Shown one piece after another: positions 2,209 through 56,861 of a stretch of DNA of 64,000 nt (position 1 is its first letter; every line of letters starts with the position of its first letter). The notes below the pieces were generated by a model. That model searched no databases. It was not told the origin of the DNA and worked only from the letters and a program-made list of their open reading frames with translations. Source of the stretch: Deltaproteobacteria bacterium (GTDB lineage Bacteria; Myxococcota; UBA727; VGSZ01); the NCBI GenBank assembly GCA_016177705.1, contig JACOUT010000005.1, positions 30,374 to 94,373 on the forward strand, read 5' to 3'. A program made the position numbers and the translations under genes.

Positions 2209-2280
2209 GCGTCCCGCATAGCGCGCCGGCGTAGCGAGCCCAACCTGCTACCGTGTGGCAACCCTCTGGTGGAGGAGCTC

Positions 2281-24790: not shown

Positions 24791-24859
24791 CCCTTTCTGG
24801 TCTGAGCACGCCCGCGCCGGGGCTTGTGCGCCCAGCGCGCGTGGGGCAAGAGGAACGCG

Positions 24860-25591
24860 ATGAAGTGGTCGACGATCGCCGCGCTGATGTTCAAGCACCG
24901 CGTGGCCTTCCTGCTCGTGTGGGTGGTGTGTTGGGTCGGCTGCGATCAGGCGAGCAAGATCTGGGCGCAGGGCGCGCTCGCGGAGCAGCGCGAGGTGGTC
25001 AGGCCCAAGGAAGTGGTGGCGCCTGACGGCACCAGCACGCGCACCGAGGAGCGCGTCACCCAGTTCTTCGCCAAGCGCACCATCACGCTGCACGAAAACG
25101 GCCTGTTCGGCCTCGGCTTCAAGTACGCCGAGAACCGCGCCGCTGCCTTCTCGCTCACCGAGTCGATCCCCGAGGGCGCGCGCCGGCCGCTGTTGTTGCT
25201 CGTCAGCGTCGCGGCGTGTGCGCTGATCGCCGTGTGGTACCTGCGCCTCAAGGTGGTCGACGGGCTTCTGATGCTCTCGTTCGCGCTCATCATCGGCGGC
25301 GCGCTCGGCAACTTCTTCGACCGGCTGCGGCTCAGCTACGTCATCGACTTCCTCGACATGTACCTGACCGGGCCGGGCGCGGTCGCCTGGCTGCGCGCGC
25401 CGCACTCGCTGTTCGGCATCGGCTTCCGCCTGTCCGACCACTGGCCGACGTACAACGTCGCCGACGTCGGCATCGTGTCGGGCGCCATCGGGGTCTTGCT
25501 GCGCACCTTCAAGCCGCTGCCGGGCACCTCGACCGACAGCGCCGTCGAGCCGAGCCCGCCGGCGCCCGCACCCGCCAAAGAGGCCGCCTGA
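24860..25591 (+). CDS. lspA: lipoprotein signal peptidase (signal peptidase II)
   Basis: 'GGALGNFFDRLRLSYVIDFL', 'WPTYNVADVGI' LspA motifs; 4 TM segments. Confidence 0.85.
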   Translation: MKWSTIAALMFKHRVAFLLVWVVCWVGCDQASKIWAQGALAEQREVVRPKEVVAPDGTSTRTEERVTQFFAKRTITLHENGLFGLGFKYAENRAAAFSLTESIPEGARRPLLLLVSVAACALIAVWYLRLKVVDGLLMLSFALIIGGALGNFFDRLRLSYVIDFLDMYLTGPGAVAWLRAPHSLFGIGFRLSDHWPTYNVADVGIVSGAIGVLLRTFKPLPGTSTDSAVEPSPPAPAPAKEAA

Positions 25592-28876: not shown

Positions 28877-29644
28877 ATGCTACCTCTCGTCGTGGCGCTG
28901 GTTGTGGCGCAGGTCGACGCCGGCCCTGCCGACGCTGGACCTGTCGACGCCGGACAGCCGCCAACGGTCTGCGGCACGCTCAGCGCCGAGGGCGCGTGCT
29001 TCGGCGAGGTCGCCGCCTGGTGCAGCGAGGACAACACGGGCGGCGCCGCCGCCGCCGCCGATGTGCACGTCGAGGACTGCGCGGGCGGCGCCTGCGCCGT
29101 GCTCGACGACGTCGGCGCTTGGTGCTTCGCCGCGGACGGCGCGCGCTGCGCGTTCGCCGCGGGGGCCGGCGCCACCGCGCACGCCTGCGGGCCGGTGCAG
29201 GCCGCGCCCGACCCTGCCTGGGGCTGCGACCTCGTCGACGGCTGCGTGCCGCTCGCGACCGCCGGCTGCGGCGCGGGCTGCGTCGATGCCGAGCGCGTGC
29301 GCCTGGCCTGTTCGCCCTTCGGGCAGCCGGTGATGTTTCGCTGCGCGGGCTTCGGCGGCGCCTGCGTCGGTGAGGGCTGTGTCGACCTTGGCGTCGGCGC
29401 GCCCTGCGACGAGCGCTTCACCTGCGCCGCGGGCCTCGCGTGCATCGTCGGGGCGTGCGTGGCGGACCTGCCGGGCGCGCTCGTCGACGCTGGGCCGGGT
29501 GAGCCGCCGGCACCACCGGCACCGCCTCCCCTGTGCGGCGCCGGCGCCGTCACCTGCCTTGGGCCCGCGGCGCTCTTGCTCGTCGCTGTTCGCCGAGGCA
29601 GCCGGCGCGCGCGCACGACGTCACCGCCCTATCGGTTGACCTGA
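28877..29644 (+). CDS. Cys-rich secreted protein with MYXO-CTERM-like C-terminal sorting tail (array member 1)
   Basis: ATG at 28877 'MLPLVVALVVAQVDAGPADAGPVDAG'; C-terminus 'PPPLCGAGAVTCLGPAALLLVAVRRGSRRA'. Confidence 0.65.
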   Translation: MLPLVVALVVAQVDAGPADAGPVDAGQPPTVCGTLSAEGACFGEVAAWCSEDNTGGAAAAADVHVEDCAGGACAVLDDVGAWCFAADGARCAFAAGAGATAHACGPVQAAPDPAWGCDLVDGCVPLATAGCGAGCVDAERVRLACSPFGQPVMFRCAGFGGACVGEGCVDLGVGAPCDERFTCAAGLACIVGACVADLPGALVDAGPGEPPAPPAPPPLCGAGAVTCLGPAALLLVAVRRGSRRARTTSPPYRLT

Positions 29645-29816: not shown

Positions 29817-30650
29817 ATGCGGAACGTGCTGCTTTGTTGTTCGTTGGCGTTGGTTGCGTCGGGCGCGGCGTTCGCGCAGGGCGAGGGAGAGGGCGAGGGC
29901 GAGGCCTGCGGCGCCGTCACGCTCGAGGGCGAGTGCCAGGGCACGGACGCCGTGTGGTGCCAGGACAATGTCCTGCAGCGCGTGACCTGCGCGGATCTGC
30001 TGGGTGATGGCAGCGTGGTCGGCAGCTGCGAGGTCTACACCGGCTTCGGTTCGTGGTGCGCCTTCAACGACGGCGACCCGTGCGCGTTCCAGACCCAGGA
30101 CGGCAACGCCATCTACTTCGCTTGCGCCAACGACAGCTCGGGCTGCGTCGACGGTCAGTGCACGGCCGGCACTGGCGCCTGCACGCCCGACGCGGATCCG
30201 CAGAACCCCACCGTGACCTGCCTCGACGGCGGCAACCTTCAAATCGGCTGCCAGCCCTGGGCGCAGGCGTTCGTCTACACCTGCGCGGGCATCAGCGCCG
30301 CCTCCACCTGCGCCAACGACGTGTGCGGCAACGTCGGCTCGGGCGATCCGTGCGCTGACGGCATCGCCGAGTGCGGCGGCGGCCTCTCCTGCGGCGCCGA
30401 CAACACCTGCGGTGGCGGCGGCGAGGGCGAGGGCGAGCCCGCCGAAGGCGAAGGCGAGGGCGACAACGGTGAGTGCGCCAGCGACCGCGACTGCGACGAA
30501 GGCGAGATCTGCGACAACGGCGAGTGCACCGGCGGTGGCGAGCAGCCCCCGGTGTGCAGCCACACGGCCACGAGCGCCGGTCTGCCGGCGGCGGGCCTGT
30601 TGGCGCTCGGCGGTCTGGTGATCGGCGTGCGCCGTCGCCGTCGCGCCTGA
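29817..30650 (+). CDS. Cys-rich secreted protein with short (GE)n tracts and MYXO-CTERM-like tail (array member 2, paralog of 28877..29644)
   Basis: SD 'ggagag' then ATG 29817: 'MRNVLLCCSLALVASGAAFAQGEGEGEGEACGAVTLEGECQGTDAVWCQDN' (compare 'CGTLSAEGACFGEVAAWCSEDN'). C-terminus 'PPVCSHTATSAGLPAAGLLALGGLVIGVRRRRRA'. Confidence 0.7.
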   Translation: MRNVLLCCSLALVASGAAFAQGEGEGEGEACGAVTLEGECQGTDAVWCQDNVLQRVTCADLLGDGSVVGSCEVYTGFGSWCAFNDGDPCAFQTQDGNAIYFACANDSSGCVDGQCTAGTGACTPDADPQNPTVTCLDGGNLQIGCQPWAQAFVYTCAGISAASTCANDVCGNVGSGDPCADGIAECGGGLSCGADNTCGGGGEGEGEPAEGEGEGDNGECASDRDCDEGEICDNGECTGGGEQPPVCSHTATSAGLPAAGLLALGGLVIGVRRRRRA

Positions 30651-32798: not shown

Positions 32799-35017
<2,219 letters not shown>

Positions 35018-40008: not shown

Positions 40009-41322
40009 TCACTCCTCGATGGTCGTGTAGTGCTGCGGCCTCGGCGCCAACGATCCGGCACCGGCGCTGTACTGCTTCCAGCTCACGCTCGGCGCGCCGT
40101 TCTCCACCTTGCGCATGGTGATGCAGCCGGGCACCGGGCACACCAGGCTGCACAGGTTGCAGCCGACGCACATGTCCTCTTTGACCTCGACGAGGCGCTT
40201 GCCGTTCTTGGGCGCGAGCGCGAGCGCCTGGTGCGCGCCGTCTTCGCAGGCGATGAAGCACAGCTCGCAGCCGATGCACTTGTCCTCGTCGATGTGCGCG
40301 CGGATGAAGTGGTTGAGGTCGAGGTTCTCCCACTTCTGGATGCTCGGCACCGCCAGGCCCTGGAAATCCGTCAGACGTGTGTAGCCCTTCTCCGCCATCC
40401 AGTTGGCGAGCCCGTCGATCATGTCCTCGACGATGCGGAAGCCGTAGTGCATCACCGCCGTGCACACCTGCACGTTGGCGCAGCCGACCGCGATGAACTC
40501 GGCGGCGTCCTTCCAGGTGGAGATGCCGCCGATGCCGGAGATGGGCAGGCCCTTCAGCTCGGGGTCGGCGGCGATCGACGAGACGAAGTTGAGCGCGATC
40601 GGCTTGACCGCCGGGCCGCAGTAGCCGCCGTGGCTGCCCTTGCCGGCGACGTTGGGCCGCGGCGCCATCATGTCGAGGTCGACGCCCATCAGCGAGTTGA
40701 TGGTGTTGATGGCGCTGACCGCGTCGGTCTTGGCGCGCTTGGCCGCCTTCGCCGGGTAGGTAATGTCGGCAACGTTGGGCGTGAGCTTGGTGATGACCGG
40801 GATGGTGCTCACCTCTTTCACCCACTCGACGATCTGCTGGCAGTAATCGGGCACCTGACCGACGGCGGCGCCCATGCCGCGCTCGCTCATGCCGTGCGGG
40901 CAGCCGAAGTTCAGCTCGAAGCCGTCGCAGCCGGTCTCGCCATGGGTGCGCTTGACGATCTCGTGCCACACCTCGCGCTTGCTCTCGACCATCAGGGACG
41001 CGATCAAGGAGTGCTTGGGGTAGCGCTTCTTGATGAGCTTCATCTCCCGCAGGTTGTCCTCGATCGGGCGGTCGGTGATCAGCTCGATGTTGTTCAAGCC
41101 GATCAGCTTCTGCGTGCCGGAGTCGATGCCGCCATAGCGCGAGTAGACGTTGACGATGGGCTGGCCGATGGTCTTCCACACCGCGCCACCCCAGCCGCAA
41201 TCGAACGCGCGCGCCACCTGTCCGTAGGTGTTGGTGGGCGGCGCCGAGGCGAGCCAGAACGGGTTGGGCGAGACGATACCCGCGAGGTTGGCGGTGAGAT
41301 CGACGTTGCTGGCAGCGGCCAT
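40009..41322 (-). CDS. preA: NAD-dependent dihydropyrimidine dehydrogenase subunit PreA (DHOD-like FMN domain plus two 4Fe-4S ferredoxin motifs)
   Basis: 'GFELNFGCPHGM', 'CIGCELCFIACEDGAHQA', 'CVGCNLCSLVCPVPGCI'. Confidence 0.9.
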   Translation of the reverse strand: MAAASNVDLTANLAGIVSPNPFWLASAPPTNTYGQVARAFDCGWGGAVWKTIGQPIVNVYSRYGGIDSGTQKLIGLNNIELITDRPIEDNLREMKLIKKRYPKHSLIASLMVESKREVWHEIVKRTHGETGCDGFELNFGCPHGMSERGMGAAVGQVPDYCQQIVEWVKEVSTIPVITKLTPNVADITYPAKAAKRAKTDAVSAINTINSLMGVDLDMMAPRPNVAGKGSHGGYCGPAVKPIALNFVSSIAADPELKGLPISGIGGISTWKDAAEFIAVGCANVQVCTAVMHYGFRIVEDMIDGLANWMAEKGYTRLTDFQGLAVPSIQKWENLDLNHFIRAHIDEDKCIGCELCFIACEDGAHQALALAPKNGKRLVEVKEDMCVGCNLCSLVCPVPGCITMRKVENGAPSVSWKQYSAGAGSLAPRPQHYTTIEE

Positions 41323-41324
41323 GA

Positions 41325-42683
41325 TCAGTGCCCCCTCAGGAAGGTCGAGATGGCGGCGGCGGCGCGCTTGCCGTCGGCGGCGGCGTTGACGATCTCTTTG
41401 CCGCCGTTGACGCAGTCGCCGCCGGCAAAGACCTTGGCGTTGCCGGTGCGTCCAACCTCATCGATGACCACGCGACCGGCGCCGTCGAGCTGCACGCCGG
41501 ACACGCCGCGCAACAGCTCGACCCGCTTGGTCTGCCCGAGCGCCTTGATGACCAAGTCGCAAGGGAGCACGTGCTCGCTGCCGGCGACGGCGCTGACGCC
41601 GCGGCGGCCGCTCGCGTCCGGCGCGCCGAGCGCCATCTTCACGCACGTGAGGCCGGTGACCCGTCCGCCGTCGGCCACGACCTCGACCGGCGCGGTCAGC
41701 CAGTGGAATTCGCAGCCGCTCGCGCGCGCGAGCGCGATCTCGAAGTCGTAGGCCGGCGCCTCGTCTTCCGAGCGCCGATAGACGAAGGCGACGGACGCAG
41801 CGCCGAGCCGCTTGGCCTGCGTGGCGGCGTCGACGGCGGTGTTGCCGCCGCCGATGACCAGCACGCGCGTCGGCGGCGTGAAGGTGCCGTACGGACGCGT
41901 CTTGAGCTGCTCGATGAAGGAGAGCGCGTCGACCACGCCGGCATGTCCCTCGCCCGCGATGCCGAGCGACTGAGTGGCGCCGAGCCCGACCCCGAGGAAG
42001 ACCGCGTCGAAGTCGCGCTCGAGCTGGGCGAACGACAGGTCCGTGCCGACCGTGACGCCGGTGCGTAGCTCGACGCCGAGGTCGAGGATGGTCTTGGCTT
42101 CGGCGAGCGCGGTGTCCGGGCGCAGCTTGTATTGGGCGATGCCGAAGGTGTTGAGGCCGCCGGGTTGCTTGCGCGAGTCGAACATCACCACCGCGTGTCC
42201 CGCGCGGCGCAGCTCCTGCGCACAGGCGAGGCCGGCGGGGCCCGCGCCGACGACCGCGACCTTCTTGCCGGTCGAGGCGCCGGGCGCGAACAGCTTCCAG
42301 CCCTTGGCCAGCACGGCGTCGGTAGCGTGGCGCTGCAGTCGGCCGATGGCGACCGGCCGGCGCTCGGACTGGTTCATCACGCAGGAGCCCTCGCACAAGA
42401 CCTCGACGGGGCAGGCGCGCGCGCACGAGTGGCCGAGCGGGTTGGCATCGAGGATGACGCGCGCGGCACCCTTGAGGTTGTCGTTGGCGATCTTCTTGAT
42501 GAAGGACGGCACGTCGATGTGCGTGGGGCACGCGATGGTGCAGGGCGCGTCGTAGCAGTAGAGGCAGCGCGCCGACTCGGCCACGGCTTCGCTGTCGGTG
42601 AGCGCGGGGTGCAGCTCGGCGAAATTGTGCGCGATGTCGGCAGCAGAGAGCGGCGCGCCGGCGCCGGCGGTGCGGAGACTCAT
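41325..42683 (-). CDS. preT: dihydropyrimidine dehydrogenase subunit PreT (GltD-like NAD(P)H oxidoreductase)
   Basis: 'CLYCYDAPCTIACPTHIDV', 'VAVVGAGPAGLACA', 'VLVIGGGNTAVD'; 2-nt gap to preA. Confidence 0.9.
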   Translation of the reverse strand: MSLRTAGAGAPLSAADIAHNFAELHPALTDSEAVAESARCLYCYDAPCTIACPTHIDVPSFIKKIANDNLKGAARVILDANPLGHSCARACPVEVLCEGSCVMNQSERRPVAIGRLQRHATDAVLAKGWKLFAPGASTGKKVAVVGAGPAGLACAQELRRAGHAVVMFDSRKQPGGLNTFGIAQYKLRPDTALAEAKTILDLGVELRTGVTVGTDLSFAQLERDFDAVFLGVGLGATQSLGIAGEGHAGVVDALSFIEQLKTRPYGTFTPPTRVLVIGGGNTAVDAATQAKRLGAASVAFVYRRSEDEAPAYDFEIALARASGCEFHWLTAPVEVVADGGRVTGLTCVKMALGAPDASGRRGVSAVAGSEHVLPCDLVIKALGQTKRVELLRGVSGVQLDGAGRVVIDEVGRTGNAKVFAGGDCVNGGKEIVNAAADGKRAAAAISTFLRGH

Positions 42684-42785
42684 GGGGCCTTCTCGGACGG
42701 CGCCACCTCGAGGTCAACCGGGACGCGCGCGGCGCGCTGCGGCGGCGAGGTGCGCCGCGGCGGCACCCTGGGGTAGACCTGCCCG

Positions 42786-44155: not shown

Positions 44156-45274
44156 TCAGCGCCGGGCAGGCTCGAGCTTCGGCCCGCGTAGCTCGGTGTA
44201 CGACGACGCCGCCAACAGCAGGTCACCGTCCGGCGACAGGCTGACGCGCCCGTCGCCGCCCACCGGGCCCGCCCTGGCGCCGTGCGGCAGCGTCCAGCGC
44301 GCGGCCACCGGGGAGCCGGTGACCAGCAGCGTACCGTCGCGCGCCAGCGCGATCGAGCGCGTACGACCGCCGACGTCGATGGCGGCGGTGCGTTCGGCGG
44401 AGTCGACGCGCCACACCTCGGCGCGTCCGTCGAATGCGAAGGCGACGCGTTGGCCATCGGCGGTAATGGCCGAGGCGCAGCCGATCCGCTCGCTCACTTC
44501 CTTGGGCGTGAGGCGCGCGGGGAAGCGGAACAGCTCGTTGCCGCGCTCGGCGTCCCACACGACGGCGACGCCGTCGGGGCCGAGCACCGCGATCACCAAC
44601 AAGCCGTCCGAGTGGAAGGCGACGTCGCGCAACGGGCGATCGACGGCCGGCGAGCGCCACAGCGGCACGCCGGTGCCGGCGTCGAGCACCACCGCGAAGC
44701 CGCGTCGCAGCAGCTCCTCGATCAACACGTCGCCGACGACGAGACGGCCGCCGTCGGGCGCGAAGGCGATGGCAGTGACGGCGTGCAGCGACGCGGTCCA
44801 GGCCAAGCTGCCCTTGGTGGTGTCGTAGACGCGCACCTCCGGGTGGCCATGGCTCGCCACCGCCAAGCGTGCGCCGTCGGGGGAGAGCGCGATGCGATCG
44901 GGCACGCCGACCTCGGTGACGCGCAGCACCAGCGCGGCGTGCTCGCCGCGGCGCACCGGCGCGAGATCCCAGACGTGGACCTTGCCCTCGGACGACGTCG
45001 CCAGCCAGCGACCGTCCCTCGAGAAAGCGGAGGCCACCAGCGAGAACTCACCGGCCGCGCGGGCGACACCGGCCGGCGCGCGCTTCGACCGGCGACGCGC
45101 CGCCGGCTTGCGGCGCACGCCGGCTTTGGCCTTGGCCTTCGTTGTGGCCTTGGCCTTGATCTTGGTCTTCTTGCGGGCCACCGGCTTCGCGCGCACCTTC
45201 GCGCGGGCGCGTGGCTTTGGCTTCGCCCTCTTGCGGGTCTTCGCCTTCGCCGTCTTCTTCTTGCGGGACGCCAT
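44156..45274 (-). CDS. WD40-repeat protein with Lys/Ala-rich (histone-H1-like) N-terminal tail
   Basis: 'MASRKKKTAKAKTRKRAKPKPRARAKVRAKP...' then WD-like blades ('VHVWDL', 'VRVYDT', 'VAVVWDA'). Confidence 0.7.
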   Translation of the reverse strand: MASRKKKTAKAKTRKRAKPKPRARAKVRAKPVARKKTKIKAKATTKAKAKAGVRRKPAARRRSKRAPAGVARAAGEFSLVASAFSRDGRWLATSSEGKVHVWDLAPVRRGEHAALVLRVTEVGVPDRIALSPDGARLAVASHGHPEVRVYDTTKGSLAWTASLHAVTAIAFAPDGGRLVVGDVLIEELLRRGFAVVLDAGTGVPLWRSPAVDRPLRDVAFHSDGLLVIAVLGPDGVAVVWDAERGNELFRFPARLTPKEVSERIGCASAITADGQRVAFAFDGRAEVWRVDSAERTAAIDVGGRTRSIALARDGTLLVTGSPVAARWTLPHGARAGPVGGDGRVSLSPDGDLLLAASSYTELRGPKLEPARR

Positions 45275-45432: not shown

Positions 45433-46287
45433 ATGTCGACGCCGCGAAACACCATGGTCTCCCCCCGCCCCCATCGCGCGGTGGTCGCCGCGTTGCTCTG
45501 CTCGGTGCTCGGCTGCGCGCGCGCGGCCGACGCTGCCGAGCTGTCGCCATCGACGTTCGCGACGTTGACCAGCGTCATCACCGTCGCGCTCGGCCGCCAC
45601 GAGAATCTCGACGTGCTCTCCTCGTCCGATGTGCGGCGCGCCGTCGAGCTCGAGGGCGACAAGCGCGCGCTCGGCTGCGCGGAGCAGACCTCGTGCCTGG
45701 CCGAAGTCGCGGGCGCCATGGGCGCTCGGCTGGTGGTGTTCGGTCAGCTCGGCGACCTCGACGGCGAGCTGGTGCTGACGCTCAACCTCTATGACTCGCA
45801 GTCGGCGAGCGCGGTCGGCCGAGCGCTCGAGCGCGCCCCCGACTCGCGGCGCTTGGCGGCACAGCTCGAAGGAGCCGTCGACCGGCTACTCGCGCGCACG
45901 CTCTCCTCGCTCAAGGCGGGCGAGCGCCTGCGCATCCTGGTGCTCGACCTCGAGCCAGGCGCGCCGACAGCAGCGCCTGGGCCTGCCGAGGCGGCGGCCG
46001 CGACCACCTCGTCCGACGAGCCAACTCCCTGGCTGCTTTATGGCGCGGGCGCCACCGCGGGCGTCGCGGCGCTGGCGGTCGGCGTTGGTGCCGTGCTCGG
46101 CGGACTCAACGTCGCGGAGCTCGATGCCGGCGCCAAGGAGCCGCTCGCGAAGAAGGCGCTGGAGCACGATCAGGCGGCGCAGGTGCTCGGCCTCGGCGCC
46201 AACGCCTCCTTCCTCACGTCTGCGGCCGCGCTGGTGGTCGCCGCCAGTCTCGGCGCTGCGCACCTCGTCGTCGGAGGGCCGGAATGA
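45433..46287 (+). CDS. module partner (copy 2), paralog of 5602..6381
   Basis: ATG near 45433: 'MSTPRNTMVSPRPHRAVVAALLCSVLGCARAADA'. Conserved 'LGCAEQTSCLAEVAGAMGARLVVFGQLGDLDGELVLTLNLYD'. C-terminal zipper 'GAGATAGVAALAVGVGAVLGG...SAAALVVAASLGAAHLVVGGPE'. Confidence 0.65.
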   Translation: MSTPRNTMVSPRPHRAVVAALLCSVLGCARAADAAELSPSTFATLTSVITVALGRHENLDVLSSSDVRRAVELEGDKRALGCAEQTSCLAEVAGAMGARLVVFGQLGDLDGELVLTLNLYDSQSASAVGRALERAPDSRRLAAQLEGAVDRLLARTLSSLKAGERLRILVLDLEPGAPTAAPGPAEAAAATTSSDEPTPWLLYGAGATAGVAALAVGVGAVLGGLNVAELDAGAKEPLAKKALEHDQAAQVLGLGANASFLTSAAALVVAASLGAAHLVVGGPE

Positions 46288-46793
46288 GAATCGTGGCGCT
46301 GCTGGCGTCGATGATCGCGCTCGGCTCGTGCTTCGGCCGCGTCGACCTCGAGGGCAAGCAATGCGGGGCCGACGAGGACTGCGGCGACGGCTACGTGTGC
46401 CGCGACGAAGTCTGTCGCGCGACCGGTGAGGGTGAAGGCGAGGGTGAAGGCGAGGGTGAAGGCGAGGGTGAAGGCGAGGGTGAAGGCGAGGGTGAAGGCG
46501 AGGGTGAAGGCGAGGGTGAAGGCGAGGGTGAGGGCGAGGGTGAGGGCGAGGGTGAAGGTGAAGGTGAGGGCGAAGGCGAGGGTGAGGGTGAAGGCGAGGG
46601 TGAGGGTGAAGGCGAGGGTGAGGGCGAGGGCGAAGGTGAACCGCCCGCCACCGTGCTGCTGGCCGGCATCGAGTCCGGCGGCGGCATGGTCCAAACCGCG
46701 GGGGGCGAGCTGCGGCTCTTCGCGGGCGGCCTGGAGATGCCCACCAGGGCGTGCAGCGGTGTTGTGTGTTTGCTCGGAGGGATCGCGCCATGA
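46284..46793 (+). CDS. lipoprotein: signal/lipobox, Cys motif, ~36x(GE), short tail (copy 2 of the module)
   Basis: ATGA overlap with the partner; 'MRIVALLASMIALGSCFGRVDLEGKQCGADEDCGDGYVCRDEVCRATGEGEGE...'. Confidence 0.7.
   Translation: MRIVALLASMIALGSCFGRVDLEGKQCGADEDCGDGYVCRDEVCRATGEGEGEGEGEGEGEGEGEGEGEGEGEGEGEGEGEGEGEGEGEGEGEGEGEGEGEGEGEGEGEGEGEGEGEGEPPATVLLAGIESGGGMVQTAGGELRLFAGGLEMPTRACSGVVCLLGGIAP
46424..46640. repeat. GE-coding microsatellite containing a perfect 12-bp unit 'ggcgagggtgaa' x~9
   Basis: 'gaaggcgagggtgaaggcgagggtgaa...' read directly. Confidence 0.9.
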
Positions 46794-47734
46794 GGCTGGT
46801 CATCAACGTCTCGAACACCTTGCTGCGCCGCGCGCTCGGCGCCGCTGCCATCAGCGGCCTGCTCGCGGGCGCGTACTTCATCGGCAGCGCGCGCGCCGAT
46901 GGCATCCCGACCGGCAACGCCATCTTCTATTCGGGCCTGCTCGAGGAAAGCGGCGTGCCCGCCGAGGGTGATCGGTCCGTCGTTATTCGCCTGTTCGACG
47001 CGCCCTCGGCTGGCACCGAGCGCTGCACCACCACACTGACGGCGACGTTCACGGCCGGTCGCTTCCGCGTGCCGCTGGTCGGTGCGTGCACGGCCGCCAT
47101 CCACACCTACGCCGATCTGTTCGCCGAGGTGAGCGTGGGCGTCTACACGCTGCCGCGCACCAAGCTCGGCGCCGTTCCCTACGCCGTCGAGGCCGAGCGT
47201 GCGACGCAGGCACAGGTGGCCGACGACGCCAACCTGCTCGGCGGCTCGGCGCCGAGCGCGTTCGCGACTGCCGCGCACAATCACGACACCGGCGCCATCA
47301 CCAGCGGCACCTTGCCGATCAACCGCGGCGGCACCGGCATCAACACCGTCACCGGCAATGCCAACCGCGTGCTCGGCGCCAACTCCGGCGGCACCGGCTA
47401 TGAGCTGAAGGCGATCAACGGCACCTCGGGCCAGATCGCGGTCACGCAGGCACCGGGCGCCGTCGCGCTCAGCCTGGCCGCCGGCGTGCCGCGCGGCTGC
47501 TCCTATGAGAGCAATTCGACCGCCACGCAGCAGACGCAGGTGACCTGCCCAGCCGGCAAGTACGTCGTCGGTGGCGGCGGCGCCTGCGCGCCGAGCAACG
47601 ACCAGGGGCAAGCGACGGAGAACCGTATGAAGTACACGCGGCCGCTGAGCAACCGCACCGGCTGGGAGACCATCTGCACGGTCACCGACGGGTCGAAGTC
47701 GACGTACTCGTATGCGATCTGCTGCACCGAGTGA
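46790..47734 (+). CDS. secreted Gly/Thr-rich fibre-like protein with Cys-rich C-terminal knob
   Basis: ATGA overlap with 46284..46793; signal 'MRLVINVSNTLLRRALGAAAISGLLAGAYFIGSARA'; 'SGTLPINRGGTGINTVTGNANRVLGANSGGTGYELKAINGTSGQIAV'; C-terminus 'CPAGKYVVGGGGACAP...YAICCTE'. The sequence line numbering and the ORF track disagree by 1 nt here. Confidence 0.55.
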   Translation: MRLVINVSNTLLRRALGAAAISGLLAGAYFIGSARADGIPTGNAIFYSGLLEESGVPAEGDRSVVIRLFDAPSAGTERCTTTLTATFTAGRFRVPLVGACTAAIHTYADLFAEVSVGVYTLPRTKLGAVPYAVEAERATQAQVADDANLLGGSAPSAFATAAHNHDTGAITSGTLPINRGGTGINTVTGNANRVLGANSGGTGYELKAINGTSGQIAVTQAPGAVALSLAAGVPRGCSYESNSTATQQTQVTCPAGKYVVGGGGACAPSNDQGQATENRMKYTRPLSNRTGWETICTVTDGSKSTYSYAICCTE

Positions 47735-47769: not shown

Positions 47770-49209
47770 CTATCGCAGCAGCTCGCCTGCGCGCGCCCGC
47801 CTGATGAACTGCCCGCCGCCCTTGGCCTGCTGGCTGCCCTTGTCGACGACAATACGGCCGCGCGAGATGACCGTGTCGGGATAGCCCTTGACGGTGAAGC
47901 CCTCGAACGCCGAGTAGTCCACCCGCATGCGGTGCGTCCGCGGGTTGTTGACGCTGATGGTCTCGGTGCGGTTGGGGTCGAAGACCACGATGTCGGCGTC
48001 GGACCCGACCGCGATGGTGCCCTTCCGGGGGAACAGGCCGAAGATCTTGGCCGCGAACGTGGAGGTGACCTCGACGAAGCGGTTGAGCGACAGTCGGCCC
48101 TCGACCACGCCGCCCTGGTACATGAGCGCCATGCGGTTCTCGACGCCGGGAGCGCCGTTCGGGATCTTGTTGAAGCCCGCGCGGCCGAGCTCCTTGCCCG
48201 GGCGTTCGGGCGACGGGTCGCCAGGCTTCCAAGTGCCGTTGAAGAAGAAGGGGCAGTGGTCGGTGGCCACCGAGTGCACGTGGTGGAGCCTGAGCCCCTG
48301 CCACAGCGCGTCTTGGTTCCCCTTCTCGCGCAGCGGCGGCGACATGACCCACTTGGCGCCCTCGAAGCCGCCGTTGCCCTCGCTCAGGTAGGCGCTCTCG
48401 TCGAGGAACAGGTACTGCGGGCAGGTCTCGGCGTGCACGTCGACGCCGCGCATCCTACCGAGCTTGATCTGCTCGAGCCCGTCGGCCGACGACAGGTGCA
48501 CGATGTACAGCGAGGCGCCAGCCAGCTCGGCGATGGCGATGGCGCGGTGCACGCTCTCGGCCTCCATGCGCGTCGGCCGCGTCCTGGCATGCCAGATGGG
48601 TGCGAGCTTCTTGTCCTGCACCGCGCCCTTGATGATCTCGTCGATGACGATGCCGTTTTCGGCATGGAGGCACACGCGCGAGCCGTCGGCGCCGGCCTGC
48701 CGGAAGGCGCGGTAGAGTGTGCCGTCGTCGGCGTAGAGCACGCCGGGGTACGCCATGAACATCTTGTACGAGGTGACGCCGTCGTCGGCGAGCCGCCGCA
48801 TCTCCGAGATGCGCTCCTCCGGCATGTCGGTGAGGATCATGTGGAACGCGTAGTCGATGGCCGCCTTGCCCTCGGCCTTCTTGTGCCAGGCGTCGAGCCC
48901 TTCGAGGGCGCTCTTGCCGCGCGTCTGGATGGCGTAGTCGATGATGGTCGTGGTGCCGCCGAAGGCGGCCGCGACCGTGCCGGTGTCGAAGTCGTCCGAT
49001 GAGAAGGTGCCACCGAAGGGCATGTCCATGTGCGTGTGCGGATCGATGCCGCCCGGGATCACCAGCTTGCCGGTGGCGTCGAGAACGGTTTCGGCCTTGA
49101 CCGCGAGGTCCTTGCCGATCTGCTTGACGGTGCCGCCGTCGACGAACACGTCGGCGAAGTAGTCGTCGGTGGCGGTGATGACGCGGCCATTCTTGATGAG
49201 CAGGCTCAT
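47770..49209 (-). CDS. dihydropyrimidinase / D-hydantoinase (cyclic amidohydrolase)
   Basis: 'IPGGIDPHTHMDMPFGG', 'VHLSS', C-terminal 'GSDADIVVFDP' typical of the family. Confidence 0.9.
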   Translation of the reverse strand: MSLLIKNGRVITATDDYFADVFVDGGTVKQIGKDLAVKAETVLDATGKLVIPGGIDPHTHMDMPFGGTFSSDDFDTGTVAAAFGGTTTIIDYAIQTRGKSALEGLDAWHKKAEGKAAIDYAFHMILTDMPEERISEMRRLADDGVTSYKMFMAYPGVLYADDGTLYRAFRQAGADGSRVCLHAENGIVIDEIIKGAVQDKKLAPIWHARTRPTRMEAESVHRAIAIAELAGASLYIVHLSSADGLEQIKLGRMRGVDVHAETCPQYLFLDESAYLSEGNGGFEGAKWVMSPPLREKGNQDALWQGLRLHHVHSVATDHCPFFFNGTWKPGDPSPERPGKELGRAGFNKIPNGAPGVENRMALMYQGGVVEGRLSLNRFVEVTSTFAAKIFGLFPRKGTIAVGSDADIVVFDPNRTETISVNNPRTHRMRVDYSAFEGFTVKGYPDTVISRGRIVVDKGSQQAKGGGQFIRRARAGELLR

Positions 49210-51555: not shown

Positions 51556-53355
51556 CTACAGCCCGAGCCGCGCGTTCACCTCGGCCTTGGTGCGCTGGCC
51601 TTGCGCCTCGAGCCGCGCGCGCGCCGCCGCGATCTCGCCACGCGCGCTCACCCTCGCCACCAGCTCGTCGTACAGCTTGATCTTGGGCTCTGTGCCCGAG
51701 GGGCGCACCGTCAGGCGCGCGCCGTCCTCGGTGTGCAGCACCACCACGTCCGCCGGGTTGCCGTCCCTCGCCAGATCGTCGACGCGCACCACCTTCTTGC
51801 CGTCGAGCACGGCCGGTGGATCCTTGCGCAACGCCGCCATCGCGCCCTTGATGCGCTCCATGCCCGAGGCGCCGGGCATGGTCACCGACCAGTTGACGGC
51901 GTGCGACAGGCCGTGCGCGACGAACAGCTCCTCGAGCCGGTCGAGCACGGTCTTGCCCTCCGCCTTGAGCGCGCGCGCCAGCTCGGCGAAGCGCACGGCG
52001 GCGCCGATGCCGTCCTTGTCTTTCACCAGCGGGCCCACCGAGTAGCCGAGCGCCTCCTCGTAGCCGCACACGAAGTGCTCGCCGTGCGGCGCCCGCTCCA
52101 TGGCCTTGTTGGCGATCCACTTGAAGCCGGTGAGCGTCTCGGCGTACGCGGCGCCCTTGTCCTTGGCCATGCGTGACAAGAACGTCGACGACACGATGGT
52201 GGTGACGACGAGCTTCTTGCCGGCGCCCACCGGCAGCGGCTGGTGGTCGAGCGCGTCGGCGCACAGCAGCATGCCGATCTCGTTGCCCGACAAGAGCCGA
52301 TAGGCGCCGTCCGTCGCAACGGCGACCGCCAGTCGATCGGCGTCGGGGTCGTTGGCGAGGATCAGCTCGGCGCCGGCCTCCTTGGCGACCGCGATGGCGC
52401 GGTCGAGCGCGCCCTTCTCCTCGGGGTTGGGAAACGCCACCGTGCGGAAGGTGCCGTCGGGATCGGCCTGGGTCGGCTCGTCGATGACGCCGAGAAAGCC
52501 GGCCTCGGCGAGCGCTCGCAGCGCCAGACGATGACCGACGCCGTGCATGGCGGTGTAGACGATGCGCAGCGGCGCGCCGCCGGCCGACGCGCGGTGCCAA
52601 GCCAAGCCGCGCACGGCGTCGAGGTAGGCGCGCTCGACGTCGTCGGCGACCAGCCTGCGCACGCCGCGCGCCGCGGCGTCAGGTGGTGCCACGCGCTCGA
52701 TCGCGTTCGGCGCGGGCGCCTTGGTGATGCAGGCGGCGATGCCGGAGTCGTGCGGCGGGATGATCTGCGCCGCGTTGGCCCAGTAGACCTTGTAGCCGTT
52801 GTCGGCCGGCGGATTGTGGCTCGCGGTCACCATGACACCGGCGGCGGCGCCGAGCTGCTCGACGGCGAACGCGCACAAAGGGGTCGGCACCGGGTCGAGG
52901 AAGACGAGTGCAGGGACGCCCTGCGCCGCCAGCACCGCGCAGGTGTCCTCGGCGAATTGGCGCGACGACAGGCGGCCGTCGAAGCCGACCACCACGCCGC
53001 GCTTGCGGGCGTCGACGCCGAAGCGCGCGCCCTCGTCGAGCAGGTAGCGGCCCACGCCCCAGCTCGCCTGCATGACCACGCTGCGGTTCATGCGGGCGCT
53101 GCCCGCCTCGACGCGCCCGCGCAGGCCCGCCGTGCCGAAGCTCAGCGTGCCGGCGAAGCGCTCGACGAGGTCGGCGCCGGCCGCGTCGTCGCCGGCCTCG
53201 GCGCGAGCGAGCAACGCCGACAGCTCGGCCCTGGTCTCCGGGTCCGGATCCTCGGCGAGGAACTTGCGCGCGCGCGCCAGCGTCTCAGTCAACTTCCCTG
53301 TGCTGGTCCCTGTGCTGGTCCCTGTGCTGGTCCCTGTGGTCGATCCTGCGGCCAT
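51556..53355 (-). CDS. alpha-D-phosphohexomutase (phosphoglucomutase/phosphomannomutase family, PgcA-like)
   Basis: 'VTASHNPPADNGYKVY' active-site loop (phosphoserine), 'GFDGR', C-terminal domain conserved. Confidence 0.85.
   Translation of the reverse strand: MAAGSTTGTSTGTSTGTSTGKLTETLARARKFLAEDPDPETRAELSALLARAEAGDDAAGADLVERFAGTLSFGTAGLRGRVEAGSARMNRSVVMQASWGVGRYLLDEGARFGVDARKRGVVVGFDGRLSSRQFAEDTCAVLAAQGVPALVFLDPVPTPLCAFAVEQLGAAAGVMVTASHNPPADNGYKVYWANAAQIIPPHDSGIAACITKAPAPNAIERVAPPDAAARGVRRLVADDVERAYLDAVRGLAWHRASAGGAPLRIVYTAMHGVGHRLALRALAEAGFLGVIDEPTQADPDGTFRTVAFPNPEEKGALDRAIAVAKEAGAELILANDPDADRLAVAVATDGAYRLLSGNEIGMLLCADALDHQPLPVGAGKKLVVTTIVSSTFLSRMAKDKGAAYAETLTGFKWIANKAMERAPHGEHFVCGYEEALGYSVGPLVKDKDGIGAAVRFAELARALKAEGKTVLDRLEELFVAHGLSHAVNWSVTMPGASGMERIKGAMAALRKDPPAVLDGKKVVRVDDLARDGNPADVVVLHTEDGARLTVRPSGTEPKIKLYDELVARVSARGEIAAARARLEAQGQRTKAEVNARLGL
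53296..53340. repeat. 12-bp tandem repeat 'ccctgtgctggt' x3.75, encoding (TSTG)n at the N-terminus of the phosphohexomutase
   Basis: Read directly; gives '[13 protein letters not shown]' in the minus frame. Confidence 0.85.
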
Positions 53356-53440
53356 AGCTGCCTCCGTACGCGCGCGTCGCTAGTGAGTTCATCTACACTC
53401 GACAATGCAGGCGCGCTGAACCGCTCACCTCGGAGCCGAC

Positions 53441-54676
53441 ATGAGACGACGGATGAACAGCGTGCCCACCTTCCTGGCGGGCGTCCTCGTCGGGCTGGTC
53501 TTGGCCGCGGGCGGCGGCGTGGCGCTCGCCGCCGGCAACGTCGACGCCGCCTACCAGAAGCTGCGCGTGTTCTCGCAGGTGCTCACCTACGTGCAGCAGA
53601 GCTACGTCGACGAGGTGGACGGCGACGAACTGGTCTACGACGCGGTGGTCGGCATGCTGTCGGGCCTCGATCCGCACACCGTCTTCATGCGCCCCGCCGA
53701 GTACGAGAAGCTGCGCGAGGACACGGTGGGCGAGTTCGGCGGCCTCGGCATCGAGGTCGGCGTGGCCGGCGACGTCATCCAGGTGGAGGTGGTGCACGCC
53801 GAGAGCCCGGGCGCGCACGCGGGGCTGCGCCCGGGTGATCGCATCATCGCGGTCGACAACGAGAGCCTGCGCGGCCAGCCCATCGAGGCGAGCGTGCGGC
53901 TGATGCGCGGGCTGCCGGGCACGCGCGTGGTGCTGACCGTCGAGCGCAAGGGCTGGGAGCGCCCACGCGACATCCCGCTGGTGCGCCGTCAGGTGCGGGT
54001 CCCCTCGGTGGATCTCGAGGATCTCGGTGACGGCGTCGCCTACGTGCGCGTGCGCGCGTTCCAAGAACGCACCGACTTCGAGCTGTCGAAAGCGCTGGCC
54101 GAGGCGCGGCGCAGCGCCAAGGCGGCCGGCCGCGAGCTTCCCGCCGGGCTGGTGCTCGATCTGCGCGACAACCCGGGCGGCCTGCTCGACGAGGGCGTGC
54201 GCGTCGCCGACCGCTTCCTGGCCGAGGGGATCATCGTCACCACCAAGGGGCGCAACCCCCGCAACACCGAGGTGGAGAACGCGCGCCCCGACGGCACCGA
54301 GCCCGGCTACCCCATCGCGATCCTGGTCAACGACGGCACCGCGTCGGCCAGCGAGATCGTCGCCGGCGCCCTGCAGGACCACCACCGCGCGGCCGTGGTC
54401 GGCACGCGCACCTTCGGCAAGGGATCGGTGCAGACCCTGTTCGGCCTAGACGACGGCGCCGGCCTCAAGCTGACCATCGCGCGCTACTTCACGCCGAGCG
54501 GCCGCTCCATCCAGGACGTCGGCATCGAGCCCGATCTGGCGGTGCGTCCCGCCGACGAGCTGCCGGCCGGCCTCAAGGGGGCGGAGCGCGCCAAGCGCGA
54601 TCCCCAGGTGGCGGCGGCGCTCGACGCCCTCCGCCGGGGGCCGAAAAACCTCGCGCGTGGCCAAAAGGACGGATGA
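53441..54676 (+). CDS. ctpA: carboxyl-terminal processing protease (S41A) with PDZ domain
   Basis: Signal anchor, PDZ 'GLRPGDRIIAVDNESL', catalytic 'NDGTASASEIVAGAL', 'GTRTFGKGSVQT'. Confidence 0.85.
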   Translation: MRRRMNSVPTFLAGVLVGLVLAAGGGVALAAGNVDAAYQKLRVFSQVLTYVQQSYVDEVDGDELVYDAVVGMLSGLDPHTVFMRPAEYEKLREDTVGEFGGLGIEVGVAGDVIQVEVVHAESPGAHAGLRPGDRIIAVDNESLRGQPIEASVRLMRGLPGTRVVLTVERKGWERPRDIPLVRRQVRVPSVDLEDLGDGVAYVRVRAFQERTDFELSKALAEARRSAKAAGRELPAGLVLDLRDNPGGLLDEGVRVADRFLAEGIIVTTKGRNPRNTEVENARPDGTEPGYPIAILVNDGTASASEIVAGALQDHHRAAVVGTRTFGKGSVQTLFGLDDGAGLKLTIARYFTPSGRSIQDVGIEPDLAVRPADELPAGLKGAERAKRDPQVAAALDALRRGPKNLARGQKDG

Positions 54677-54687
54677 GGCGCGCGCCG

Positions 54688-54720
54688 CAGTGCCTTCTCA
54701 GTGCCTTCTCAGTGCCTTCG
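54688..54720 (+). promoter_or_regulatory. 3 x 11-bp direct repeat 'cagtgccttct' in the intergenic region upstream of the T3SS block
   Basis: Read directly at 54688-54720, 12 nt after the ctpA stop and ~170 nt upstream of the ATG at 54891. Confidence 0.6.
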
Positions 54721-54890
54721 AAGAGGCTATGGCTATCGTGTGCCGCGTGGCGCAGATCGGATGGCGCTGGCGGTCGATGTAGGACAGCGGCGCCACGCCG
54801 CCGATTGCCTCTTGGCGTCACCCCGCCGACGCGACGTATGATGCCGTTGGACCAACAGCCTCTCCACCCCGGACTCTCGTCGACAGCACC

Positions 54891-56861
54891 ATGGCCGCCT
54901 TCAAGCTGATCATCGAAGACGACGCCGGCAAGCAGATCATCGTGCCGTTCGCCAAGGACGTGATCACGATCGGTCGCAAGGAGGGCAATACCATCCGCCT
55001 GACCGAGCGGAACGTGTCGCGCAAGCATGCGCGGCTCTCCAAGGAGAACGGTCATGTCCTGGTAGAGGACCTGTCGAGCTACAACGGCATCCGGCTGAAC
55101 GGCGAGCGCATCACCGGGCGCGTGCAGGTCGCCGAGGGCGACACCATCCAGATCGGCGACTACCACCTCGCCATCCACGCGCAGGACGGGGCTGCCGCCA
55201 AGCCCGCAGGGTCCGGCGATCCGAACGAGACTGCGCAGATGCGCAGCGTGTCGGCGCCCACCACGATGGCGCCCGAGGATGACGAGTTTGCCGGCGATAC
55301 CCAGCGCTGGGAGGCTCCCGCCGACCTGTCCCCCGTGCCGGTCGGCTCGATGATGACGCAGGAGGAGCCCGCCATCCTGCCGACCGCCACGGCCGAGGAG
55401 ACCGTGCCGGGCCCGCATGCGGCTGGCGCCCCTACCGCCGACGGCAACCCGTTCCTCGGCGGCGGCGACACCGTGCGCGTGCCGTCGCCGTCGTCGCCGC
55501 TGTCGTCGCTCAACGCGGGCGCACCGTCGGCGATGCCCGCGCGCCGGCACGAGGTCGAGCTCGAGCCCACCGTGCGCCAGGTCGCGTCGCCCGCACCGGT
55601 CTCGGTGCCGGGCTCCGGCCATTTGGGAGAAGTCCCACGCCCGTCGTCCGCGCCGCCGGCAGCAGGCTCCGGCCCGAACCCGGCGCTCGCCGAGGACACC
55701 GCCACCGTGCGCGCGCCACCGGCGCCCGACGAGGACGTCGCCCAGCCGCGGCTGGTGGTGCTGAACACCATCTTCGCCGGCAGCGTGTTCCCGCTGCGCT
55801 CCACCGAGCAGGTGATCGGCCGCACCGACGAGAACGACATCACCGTCGAGCACCGCTCGGTGTCGCGCAACCACGCCAAGCTGGTGCGCGAGGGCGACCG
55901 CGTGCGCATCCTCGACCTGAAGAGCGCCAACGGCGTGCTGGTCAACGACGAGGAGGTCGAACAGCAGGTCTTGCAGTCAGGCGACGTCATCGAGCTCGGT
56001 CGCGTGCGATTGCGCTTCGTTCCGGTGGGCGAGCGCTTCGCCGTGCCGGCCGACGAGATCGAGCGCGCGCGCCTGGCGGACGCCGCGGGCGACGACTTCG
56101 AGAGCGACGCCAGCACCGGCATCACCAACCCGGTGCGGCCCAAGAAGAGCCTGCACTCGGACGCCGACCTGGTGCTACCGACGTCTGGCCTGGGCATGCG
56201 CAAGCTGCCGGTGCCGGTGTTGGCAGGCGCCGGGGTGCTTTTGCTGCTGCTCGTCGTCATCGTGGTGCTGTTGGCGCGCGGTGGCAGCGACGAGCAGCCG
56301 GCGGTGACGCCGCTGCCGCCCGGCGACCCACGCGTGGCGGTCATCGACAAGCCGGCCCCACCCACGCCGCCGGCCGACCCCGCGGCGACCGCGCCGACGC
56401 CGACGCCACCGGTCGCCGACCCCGCCGTGCCCGACCCGGTCGCCGCCGACCCCGCCGTGCCGGCGCCGGTCGGCGACCCAACGCCCGATCCCGCGCCGGA
56501 TCCGATCGACGCCACGCCCGATCCCGATCCCGGCGCGACGCGTCCGCCCGACCCGAACCGGGTGCGCAAGCCGCCCCCGGCCGAGCCGCGCATGTCCAAG
56601 GCGGACATCGAGAGCGCCATCACCGAGGCACGCAAGTTCTACGTGCAGGGCAAGCACGACAAGGCGATCGAGACCATCAAGCCGGTGACCAAGGCGGACA
56701 AGAACAACGCCACCGCGTGGAAGCTGCTCGGCATGGCCGCCCAGAAGCTCAACCGCTTGCAGACCATGTGCGGCGCCTACGGTGAGCTGCTGCGCCTGCA
56801 ACCGAGCGGGCCCGACGCCGAACAGGCACGCAGCAACCGCAAGACGGCGAACTGCAAATGA
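54891..56861 (+). CDS. FHA-domain inner-membrane protein, candidate T3SS SctD/YscD-like (2 FHA, TM helix, Pro-rich periplasmic part, TPR)
   Basis: Two FHA cores ('ITIGRKEGNTIRLTERNVSRKHARL', 'VIGRTDENDITVEHRSVSRNHAKL'), TM 'LPVPVLAGAGVLLLLLVVIVVLLA', Pro-rich repeats 'PAVPDPVAADPAVPAPVGDP'; 4-nt overlap with sctN. Confidence 0.65.
   Translation: MAAFKLIIEDDAGKQIIVPFAKDVITIGRKEGNTIRLTERNVSRKHARLSKENGHVLVEDLSSYNGIRLNGERITGRVQVAEGDTIQIGDYHLAIHAQDGAAAKPAGSGDPNETAQMRSVSAPTTMAPEDDEFAGDTQRWEAPADLSPVPVGSMMTQEEPAILPTATAEETVPGPHAAGAPTADGNPFLGGGDTVRVPSPSSPLSSLNAGAPSAMPARRHEVELEPTVRQVASPAPVSVPGSGHLGEVPRPSSAPPAAGSGPNPALAEDTATVRAPPAPDEDVAQPRLVVLNTIFAGSVFPLRSTEQVIGRTDENDITVEHRSVSRNHAKLVREGDRVRILDLKSANGVLVNDEEVEQQVLQSGDVIELGRVRLRFVPVGERFAVPADEIERARLADAAGDDFESDASTGITNPVRPKKSLHSDADLVLPTSGLGMRKLPVPVLAGAGVLLLLLVVIVVLLARGGSDEQPAVTPLPPGDPRVAVIDKPAPPTPPADPAATAPTPTPPVADPAVPDPVAADPAVPAPVGDPTPDPAPDPIDATPDPDPGATRPPDPNRVRKPPPAEPRMSKADIESAITEARKFYVQGKHDKAIETIKPVTKADKNNATAWKLLGMAAQKLNRLQTMCGAYGELLRLQPSGPDAEQARSNRKTANCK

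Follow-up and report, generated by a model that had tools for sequence, protein, structure and literature searches.

Pure glycine-glutamate repeat tracts beside predicted membrane anchors of putative exported proteins in a Myxococcota contig: probable polyanionic spacers encoded by in-frame minisatellites

A stretch of 64,000 nucleotides from a deltaproteobacterial genome assigned to the Myxococcota (assembly GCA_016177705.1, contig JACOUT010000005.1; hereafter the window, G+C 71%) carries several genes in which codons for glycine and glutamate alternate over tens of residues, (GE)n. We describe these tracts here, with emphasis on the longest one, which lies in a predicted lipoprotein gene at 46284-46793 (hereafter the focal gene). 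Six-frame translation located long uninterrupted runs in four genes, while only short runs were present in two further genes (Table 1). An earlier note on this DNA had listed runs of GGY-GAR codons at nearly the same places; the translation agreed with it within 1-4 bases, the short runs being somewhat shorter than the spans it had given. Arrays at the sites of the GE tracts were recovered independently of translation by Tandem Repeats Finder (TRF), and the pattern (GGNGAR)4 had 95 matches in the window versus 0.00 expected from 100 dinucleotide-preserving shuffles.

Table 1. Positions of the GE tracts, their host genes and associated features in the window
Feature	Position	Strand	Basis or remarks
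Focal gene, 169-aa predicted lipoprotein	46284-46793	+	Open reading frame, translation; orthologues in L008 and L015
Signal peptide, lipobox-like ALGS-C (Cys16)	46284-46331	+	Read by inspection of MRIVALLASMIALGSC
4-Cys knot C-x5-C-x5-C-x4-C (CGADEDCGDGYVCRDEVC)	46362-46415	+	Motif scan
(GE)36 tract	46425-46640	+	72 aa; six-frame translation
Upstream partner, 284 aa	45433-46287	+	Stop overlaps focal start (ATGA)
Downstream partner, 314-aa secreted protein	46790-47734	+	Start overlaps focal stop (ATGA)
(GE)33.5 tract	33002-33202	+	67 aa; six-frame translation
Host gene of the 33002 tract	about 32846-35017	+	Lipobox, knot, GE, then MXAN_6577-like / Stig1-like Cys-rich passenger
(EG)27.5 tract	22264-22428	-	55 aa; six-frame translation
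Host gene of the 22264 tract	21037-22578	-	Lipobox VAGC, knot, GE, then CSLREA / beta-helix / choice-of-anchor Q
(GE)9.5 tract	5369-5425	-	19 aa; six-frame translation
Host gene of the 5369 tract	4898-5605	-	Lipobox, knot, GE, then domain without assignment
Short (EG)4.5 run	10618-10644	-	Six-frame translation
Short (GE)4 run	29880-29903	+	Six-frame translation
Two short GE runs	30420-30437 / 30444-30461	+	Six-frame translation
Signal peptidase II (LspA)	24824-25591	+	Pfam Peptidase_A8, E = 4.5e-28

The tracts are translated, and all of them lie in the GE frame of open reading frames (ORFs) whose G+C content at third codon positions is ~0.86-0.92. For the focal tract, the other five frames give RVKARVKA, a stop-rich sequence, FTFALALT, SPSPSP and HLRPRPHP. 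Long ORFs of the 'SPSPSP' type overlap genes with real homologues (dihydropyrimidinase, gene 46790-47734) and are artefacts of the tracts, as had been proposed. The major codons GGC and GAG are replaced in 92 of the 213 tract codons, and all 92 changes are synonymous. No non-synonymous interruption was found among these 213 codons or among 107 tract codons of relatives, whose tracts (18, 40 and 49 codons) are likewise pure GE. The tracts have net charges of -9, -28, -33 and -36 and contour lengths of ~7-26 nm, at 3.6 Å per residue.

The focal protein consists of a signal peptide with a lipobox, one 4-Cys knot, (GE)36 and a tail of ~50 aa. A GGAGGG motif lies 5 nt 5' of its ATG, and the gene is the middle one of three, with ATGA stop/start overlaps at both its ends. 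In an AlphaFold2 (AF2) model built from the single sequence, residues 3-14 of the signal peptide are predicted to form a helix, the knot has a predicted local distance difference test score (pLDDT) of ~78-85 with a beta-hairpin, and the GE tract (residues 48-119) has a pLDDT of ~45-57 and no secondary structure at all. The knot gave sub-threshold matches to TIGR04201 (13.4 bits versus a cut-off of 25), EB and DUF7107. An exact-sequence look-up of the focal protein found it absent from the records, and both operon partners had no family match in Pfam, NCBIfam or PHROGs.

A similar layout recurs in the other host genes. All long tracts are preceded by a basic/hydrophobic signal peptide with a lipobox-like Cys at its end (read by inspection). 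In five genes, 0-35 residues separate the run from a lipobox or from the cleavage site of a signal peptide, and four of the five have a C-x5-C-x5/6-C-x4-C knot in this interval. The run at 10618-10644 lies 9 residues past the putative lipobox Cys of an 824-aa protein with a Big_2 domain. In gene 29817-30650 (+), the run at 29880-29903 directly follows a predicted signal-peptidase I site (AFA/Q), and the C-terminal runs (30420-30461) are followed by the last Cys knot and a MYXO-CTERM-like tail (...PPVCSHTATSAGLPAAGLLALGGLVIGVRRRRRA), which has the expected layout of Cys motif, transmembrane helix and Arg-rich tail and scores 18.9 bits versus a cut-off of 20 for MYXO-CTERM (TIGR03901). The Cys spacing of this gene is similar to that of TIGR04201, as in the focal protein, and it too remains below that model's cut-off (15.5 bits). 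The passengers are mutually unrelated: a beta-helix/choice-of-anchor Q protein, an MXAN_6577-like protein, a Big_2 protein, the ~50-residue tail and an unassigned domain. Because predicted anchors adjoin the tracts while the passengers are unrelated, the tract is a generic element and not part of one protein family. Matches to Trypan_PARP (14-19 bits versus a gathering threshold of 100) and to TrAA12 (14-30 bits versus 30.9, in the low-complexity part of the model only) are compositional.

Judged by a lipobox Cys followed by more than 22 residues of predicted disorder, the three tracts of 55-72 residues qualify as disordered lipoprotein linkers, with the caveats that a folded 4-Cys knot lies between Cys and tract in four genes and that the model comes from a single sequence; the 19-residue tract is below this length. 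The window also encodes LspA, the enzyme that would process the GE lipoproteins, which is context and not part of the tracts. A recent shuffling of the anchor-knot-GE module among paralogues was considered and rejected, as the knot regions of the four genes have diverged (43% mean DNA column identity). C-x5-C-x5-C-x4-C modules without a GE tract were also observed at 17587-18204 (-), 26923-26976 (-) and 29405-29458 (+), one gene carrying tandem copies.

At the DNA level, the tracts are in-frame coding minisatellites, that is head-to-tail repeats of a unit that is a multiple of 3 inside an ORF, as seen from the TRF arrays, the GE frame and the 12-, 18- and 24-bp blocks. Periodicity was evaluated for each tract against 2000 shuffles permuting synonymous codons within the tract. 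TRF assigned to the focal tract a period of 12 with 17.8 copies. A perfect 12-bp-periodic block spans ~46428-46531 (104 bp, 8.7 periods), a length reached by none of the 2000 shuffles, and the exact unit GGCGAGGGTGAA is present in seven consecutive copies in one register (46437-46520); the figure of about nine units in a row given beforehand was thus roughly right. The tract 22264-22428 contains a 24-bp repeat (59 bp, 1/2000 shuffles) and an 18-bp repeat (47 bp, 21/2000), whereas the tracts 33002-33202 and 5369-5425 have no periodicity beyond that of random codon order in the 2000 shuffles. The base unit is 6 bp and the higher-order units are 12, 18 and 24 bp, all multiples of 3 as had been noted, so that slippage would keep the frame. 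With units of these sizes inside an ORF, neither a frame shift nor a shift in promoter spacing is at issue, and phase variation was ruled out.

The repeat unit differs between species. In the focal tract of the window and in its orthologue on the related contig L008, the unit is GGC GAG GGT GAA, while the orthologue on a third contig, L015, has GGT GAA GGC GAA, with GAA as 24 of its 25 Glu codons. The L008 orthologue of the 33002 tract has GGT GAA GGA GAG, compared with mixed GGT/GGC-GAG in the window. As one synonymous difference is found in nearly every unit of a species' array, the arrays have turned over by slippage, unequal exchange or conversion; independent point mutation would not yield homogenised units specific to a species. 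That slippage or unequal exchange has acted on the GE arrays is supported indirectly by these comparisons. The earlier idea of the focal tract as a slipped-strand substrate is therefore supported, in the same indirect way, on evolutionary time scales, given that no shuffle matched the 12-bp block and that relatives carry different homogenised units.

Synonymous codon usage sets the tracts apart from the background genes of the window. GGT accounts for 38% of Gly codons in the tracts versus 9.3% in the background, and GAA for 34% of Glu codons versus 8.2% (odds ratios ~6; Fisher p ~1e-15 and ~1e-12, values that overstate independence because units are duplicated). The rare codons GGT, GGA and GAA are enriched 4-6 times, with an excess in every tract and in three species. 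In an L008 tract, GGC represents 3 of 20 Gly codons versus 74% in the background, and the GAA usage of the L015 tract contrasts with 1 of 16 in the flanking gene. The proposal that alternating synonymous codons buffer the tracts against slippage is supported in its composition, rare codons being enriched in all tracts, and not in its arrangement. Indeed, codon order did not significantly avoid 6-bp periodicity (175-1847 of 2000 shuffles at or below the observed value), and two tracts were more periodic than random, at 12-24 bp.

With major codons only, the sequence of a tract would become (GAGGGC)n, a G3N3 array containing 24-32 canonical G-quadruplex starts. We observed 15 such starts in 33002-33202 and 0-2 in the other tracts, and codon order did not significantly avoid G-quadruplex motifs given the composition. 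The use of GAA lowers these motifs from 24-32 to 0-2 in the long tracts other than 33002-33202. Some of the excess of GAA could therefore reflect avoidance of G-quadruplexes, an explanation that cannot apply to GGT or GGA and fails for some tracts. The rare-codon excess might stem from the survival of those arrays that are interrupted, from G:C-to-A:T transitions that unit duplication then multiplied, from G-quadruplex avoidance or from translational effects.

The best homologues of the window proteins are annotated Polyangiales or Myxococcota proteins from metagenome-assembled genomes (MAGs). A scan of genome contigs with PreA identified two syntenic MAG contigs, L002 and L008, at 92-93% PreA identity, neither of which carries a full tract. 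No PreA match reached 100%, so that the species of the window is apparently missing from the species representatives scanned. Both ends of L008 (13.5 kb) fall inside GE tracts (1-54 and 13417-13536), whose host genes are orthologues of the focal and 33002 genes and in which the run occupies the same protein position; at least 40 GE residues are present in the counterpart of the 33002 tract. A scan of metagenome contigs with the upstream gene of the cassette gave L015 as its sole locus (81% identity in the upstream gene); this contig contains the orthologue of the focal gene and breaks off once 49 or more GE codons have been read (1380-1526). Tract positions are thus conserved across at least three species. 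The focal orthologues of L008 (49-290, -) and L015 (1203-1390, +) have two Cys knots before the tract and the window gene has one, which means that a knot has been acquired or dropped beside the repeat.

Four sequencing runs that carry this organism (SRR12113419, SRR12113421, SRR12113422 and SRR22387838) yielded Logan contigs encoding neighbours identical to those of the window, and all of these contigs stop at tract edges. Overall, the related contigs L001 (5498-5531), L008 (both ends), L015 and L016-L021 all end inside a tract; the contigs terminated in this way comprise one MAG contig at both its ends, one metagenome contig and seven Logan contigs. GE tracts probably break up MAGs in this clade and keep proteins of this type out of public protein sets.

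A HMMER search with the focal protein against 1.84 billion representative proteins gave 2043 matches at E ≤ 1e-3, mostly GE-rich low complexity. The order lipobox, knot and GE-rich region was found in at least 28 of the best 142 new matches, and in many matches of earlier homologue searches. Small proteins with a similar short tail are among the matches (P0113 and P0144, and from an earlier search P0056 and P0069). The linkers of the matches are interrupted, as in GEGEGEPV, GEGEGDV and GEGEEGEGE. The longest uninterrupted alternation among the best matches is 15 residues (17 in the earlier searches) versus 55-72 in the window, a difference to be read knowing that the composition correction of HMMER penalises pure repeats and that short-read assemblies truncate exactly such genes. 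A homologue search with the beta-helix protein gave three uninformative matches, GE words dominating the pre-filter, and a literature search returned no relevant description of bacterial Gly-Glu repeat linkers.

The cassette of three translationally coupled genes that contains the focal gene (45433-47734) occurs in L008 and L015, with an identity of 72-81% for the upstream partner. In L002, which is syntenic in other respects, it is missing, and ~400 bp (5798-6207) separate the dihydropyrimidinase gene from the WD40 gene. This makes the GE lipoprotein part of an accessory operon. The cassette is flanked by genes for reductive pyrimidine catabolism at 40012-42713 (-) and 47773-49209 (-), encoding a PreT/PreA-type dihydropyrimidine dehydrogenase and dihydropyrimidinase; related MAGs show the same synteny for them. 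The WD40 protein gene 44156-45274 (-), at a distance of one gene from the focal operon, contains a GGCCTT x 8 array (45122-45169) that encodes a polycationic Lys/Ala/Arg-rich N-terminal tail (KAKTRKRAKPKPRARAKVRAK...), with a charge opposite to that of the GE tracts.

We consider it likely that the GE tracts are disordered polyanionic spacers, or stalks, located beside the membrane anchors of exported proteins of an uncultured Myxococcota lineage and evolving as in-frame minisatellites. According to this reading, the precursor would be exported, lipidated and cleaved at the lipobox Cys, and the 4-Cys module beside it would form a small hairpin held by disulfide bonds. With its charges repelling each other and its glycines lending flexibility, (GE)n would remain extended and hydrated, so that it would hold an unrelated passenger domain away from the membrane, and the array would change copy number by replication slippage or unequal exchange while keeping its frame. 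An extended polyanionic spacer had been expected beforehand, and the low pLDDT, the lack of predicted secondary structure and a net charge of up to -36 are consistent with that expectation. Around one in two outer-membrane lipoproteins of E. coli possesses at its N-terminus a disordered linker exceeding 22 residues, which is needed for Lol trafficking and whose length matters while its sequence does not (10.1101/2021.01.05.425367). A spacer role fits this knowledge of disordered linkers.

Several points weigh against the spacer reading. We infer the disorder, the spacer function and the present-day length polymorphism; in particular, the related contigs all end inside tracts, and tract lengths in the window depend on the assembly. 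Lipoboxes and signal peptides were read by eye, several being non-canonical at -2 or -3, and the low confidence of a single-sequence AF2 model is weak evidence for disorder. Two of the tracts show no excess periodicity. Finally, the strict G/E purity, conserved in three species, seems to exceed what a passive spacer needs, and distant homologues tolerate interruptions such as GEGEGEPV and GEGEGDV.

Other roles, as a binder of cations or cationic peptides, as a sorting signal or as a high-frequency contingency locus, have less support than that of a spacer. The purity of the tracts is the main argument for an active polyanion that would bind Ca2+, metal ions or mineral surfaces, or act as a decoy for cationic antimicrobial peptides and polycations: the absence of any non-synonymous interruption (213 codons, and 107 in relatives) despite abundant synonymous variation suggests selection on the G/E pattern, and strict alternation in an extended strand would put all carboxylates on one face. 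The net charge of up to -36 is in line with such a function, for which there are precedents. In the surface lipoprotein LbpB, anionic regions confer protection from lactoferricin (PMC3896470, PMC5352143), and low-complexity linkers of the Geobacter lipoprotein PgcA reportedly take part in metal binding (PMC10570954). Nevertheless, recent expansion of pure units could also produce purity, the position of the tract, in every case with an anchor on one side and an unrelated passenger on the other, is that of a linker, and distant homologues of like architecture tolerate P, V, D, A and S, which makes an active polyanion unlikely. We give the same low credence to a fuller version, in which pure (GE)n is a selected polyanion (cation- or mineral-binding, polycation-trapping or a charge brush) with its alternation under purifying selection, and in which DNA heterogeneity (rare GGT, GGA and GAA) is selected against a perfect (GGCGAG)n. 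The cost of the perfect array could be slippage or a coding-strand G-quadruplex, and the 55-72-residue tracts would then mark a lineage-specific envelope architecture hidden by short-read assembly breaks.

A sorting determinant, in which acidic disordered sequence past the lipid anchor directs the lipoprotein via Lol and/or to the surface, appears less probable still. Negatively charged lipoprotein export signals exist in other phyla, and the tract is N-terminal, right after the lipobox or knot. El Rayes et al. found that Lol processing is optimal only when the disordered N-terminal linker is present, and speculated that such linkers aid surface delivery (10.1101/2021.01.05.425367), a requirement that would favour this role. 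A length of 55-72 residues is, however, far beyond the known need; some GE runs adjoin a MYXO-CTERM-like anchor at the C-terminus or follow a signal-peptidase I site, situations in which Lol has no relevance, and in four genes the +2/+3 positions and the tract have a folded knot between them. We regard as very improbable that the tracts are hypermutable contingency-type loci, with clonal switching of stalk length for adaptive or antigenic purposes as in Ureaplasma MBA or Mycoplasma Vlp. The perfect 12-bp x 8.7 block, the homogenised units that differ between species and the surface-protein context point in that direction, but units that are multiples of 3 give no on/off switching and synonymous variants interrupt most of each tract, which should lower slippage rates. 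Moreover, two tracts are without excess periodicity, and a free-living soil or water myxobacterium is under no obvious adaptive-immune pressure.

If the spacer reading is true, this lineage uses one tunable module (lipid anchor, disulfide knot and Gly-Glu polyanion) as a stalk for many envelope proteins, with a length that can be adjusted via in-frame gain or loss of repeats. It would then offer a natural series on how linker length and charge set the reach of a lipoprotein in the Gram-negative envelope. The rare-codon excess in a genome of 71% G+C makes a clean bacterial case for coding-repeat stabilisation. Synonymous interruptions are known in eukaryotic repeat tracts, to which the excess in the GE tracts is analogous. 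Current understanding is not overturned.

Other repeats were observed in the window. A perfect 12-bp x 3.7 tandem repeat (TCCCTGTGCTGG) at 53295-53338 covers the N-terminus of gene 51556-53379; on the minus strand it reads in frame as (TGTS)n and adds another type of coding minisatellite to the window. A perfect 11-bp x 2.9 repeat (CAGTGCCTTCT) at 54688-54719 is intergenic, between 53420-54676 and 54783-56861, and could be regulatory. A large RCC1-repeat protein with 10 repeats is encoded at 2029-4857 (+), where TRF detected a 159-bp repeat (3049-3341). An Rfam scan of the whole window gave no matches.

Among known systems, the GE lipoproteins resemble proteins with Gram-negative outer-membrane lipoprotein linkers of the RcsF, NlpD, Pal and LpoB type, with a lipobox Cys, a long unstructured segment and then a globular domain (10.1101/2021.01.05.425367). 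They differ from these in that a minisatellite encodes the GE tract, which consists of one dipeptide repeated without interruption over as many as 72 residues; a disulfide knot usually comes before it, and it also occurs beside a C-terminal anchor. Lipoproteins of Mollicutes (Ureaplasma MBA, Mycoplasma Vlp/Vsa) share the signal peptide, the lipid anchor and the uniform short in-frame repeats; in MBA, slipped-strand mispairing changes the number of a 6-aa unit, QPAGKE, and thereby size and not frame (PMC3047005). The repeats of MBA constitute its antigenic C-terminal bulk, and their variation was demonstrated experimentally, whereas GE is an internal spacer between anchor and passenger in free-living Myxococcota, where variation is putative.

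The AAEAP repeats of Neisseria (Lip/H.8, Laz, AniA) similarly follow an N-terminal lipobox and form a linker of imperfect short repeats before a globular enzyme domain (PMC5542605). Unlike the GE dipeptide, they are imperfect Ala/Pro-rich pentapeptides over ~30-40 residues. Geobacter sulfurreducens PgcA has dipeptide-repeat tethers, (PT)n, in a lipobox-bearing extracellular protein, which provide flexible spacing on the nanometre scale (PMC10570954); these Pro-Thr linkers are uncharged and lie between cytochrome domains, not beside the anchor. As for the knot, the TIGR04201 Cys-rich repeat was first defined in Myxococcus TraA and proposed to form a rigid stalk (PMC3325183). The knot adjacent to GE is a similar short Cys-spaced module, and one GE gene has a MYXO-CTERM-like tail. 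In contrast to TraA, the knots score below curated cut-offs and occur once per protein, not as a tandem array. We know of no GE tract in TraA.

In eukaryotes, RPGR ORF15 is a Glu-Gly dipeptide low-complexity coding region which is purine-rich and hard to sequence by next-generation or Sanger methods (PMC10706286). Trypanosome procyclins, with EP repeats, form a surface coat of acidic dipeptide repeats, and the weak Pfam matches to Trypan_PARP in the window relate to them. Both come from unrelated organisms and are unrelated proteins, and the likeness is compositional only (14-19 bits versus a cut-off of 100). Taken together, the GE tracts are most likely an unusual version of the repeat-encoded low-complexity linkers known in surface lipoproteins, distinguished by the strict purity and length of the run, the pairing with a Cys knot, the rare-codon skew and the effect on metagenome assembly.

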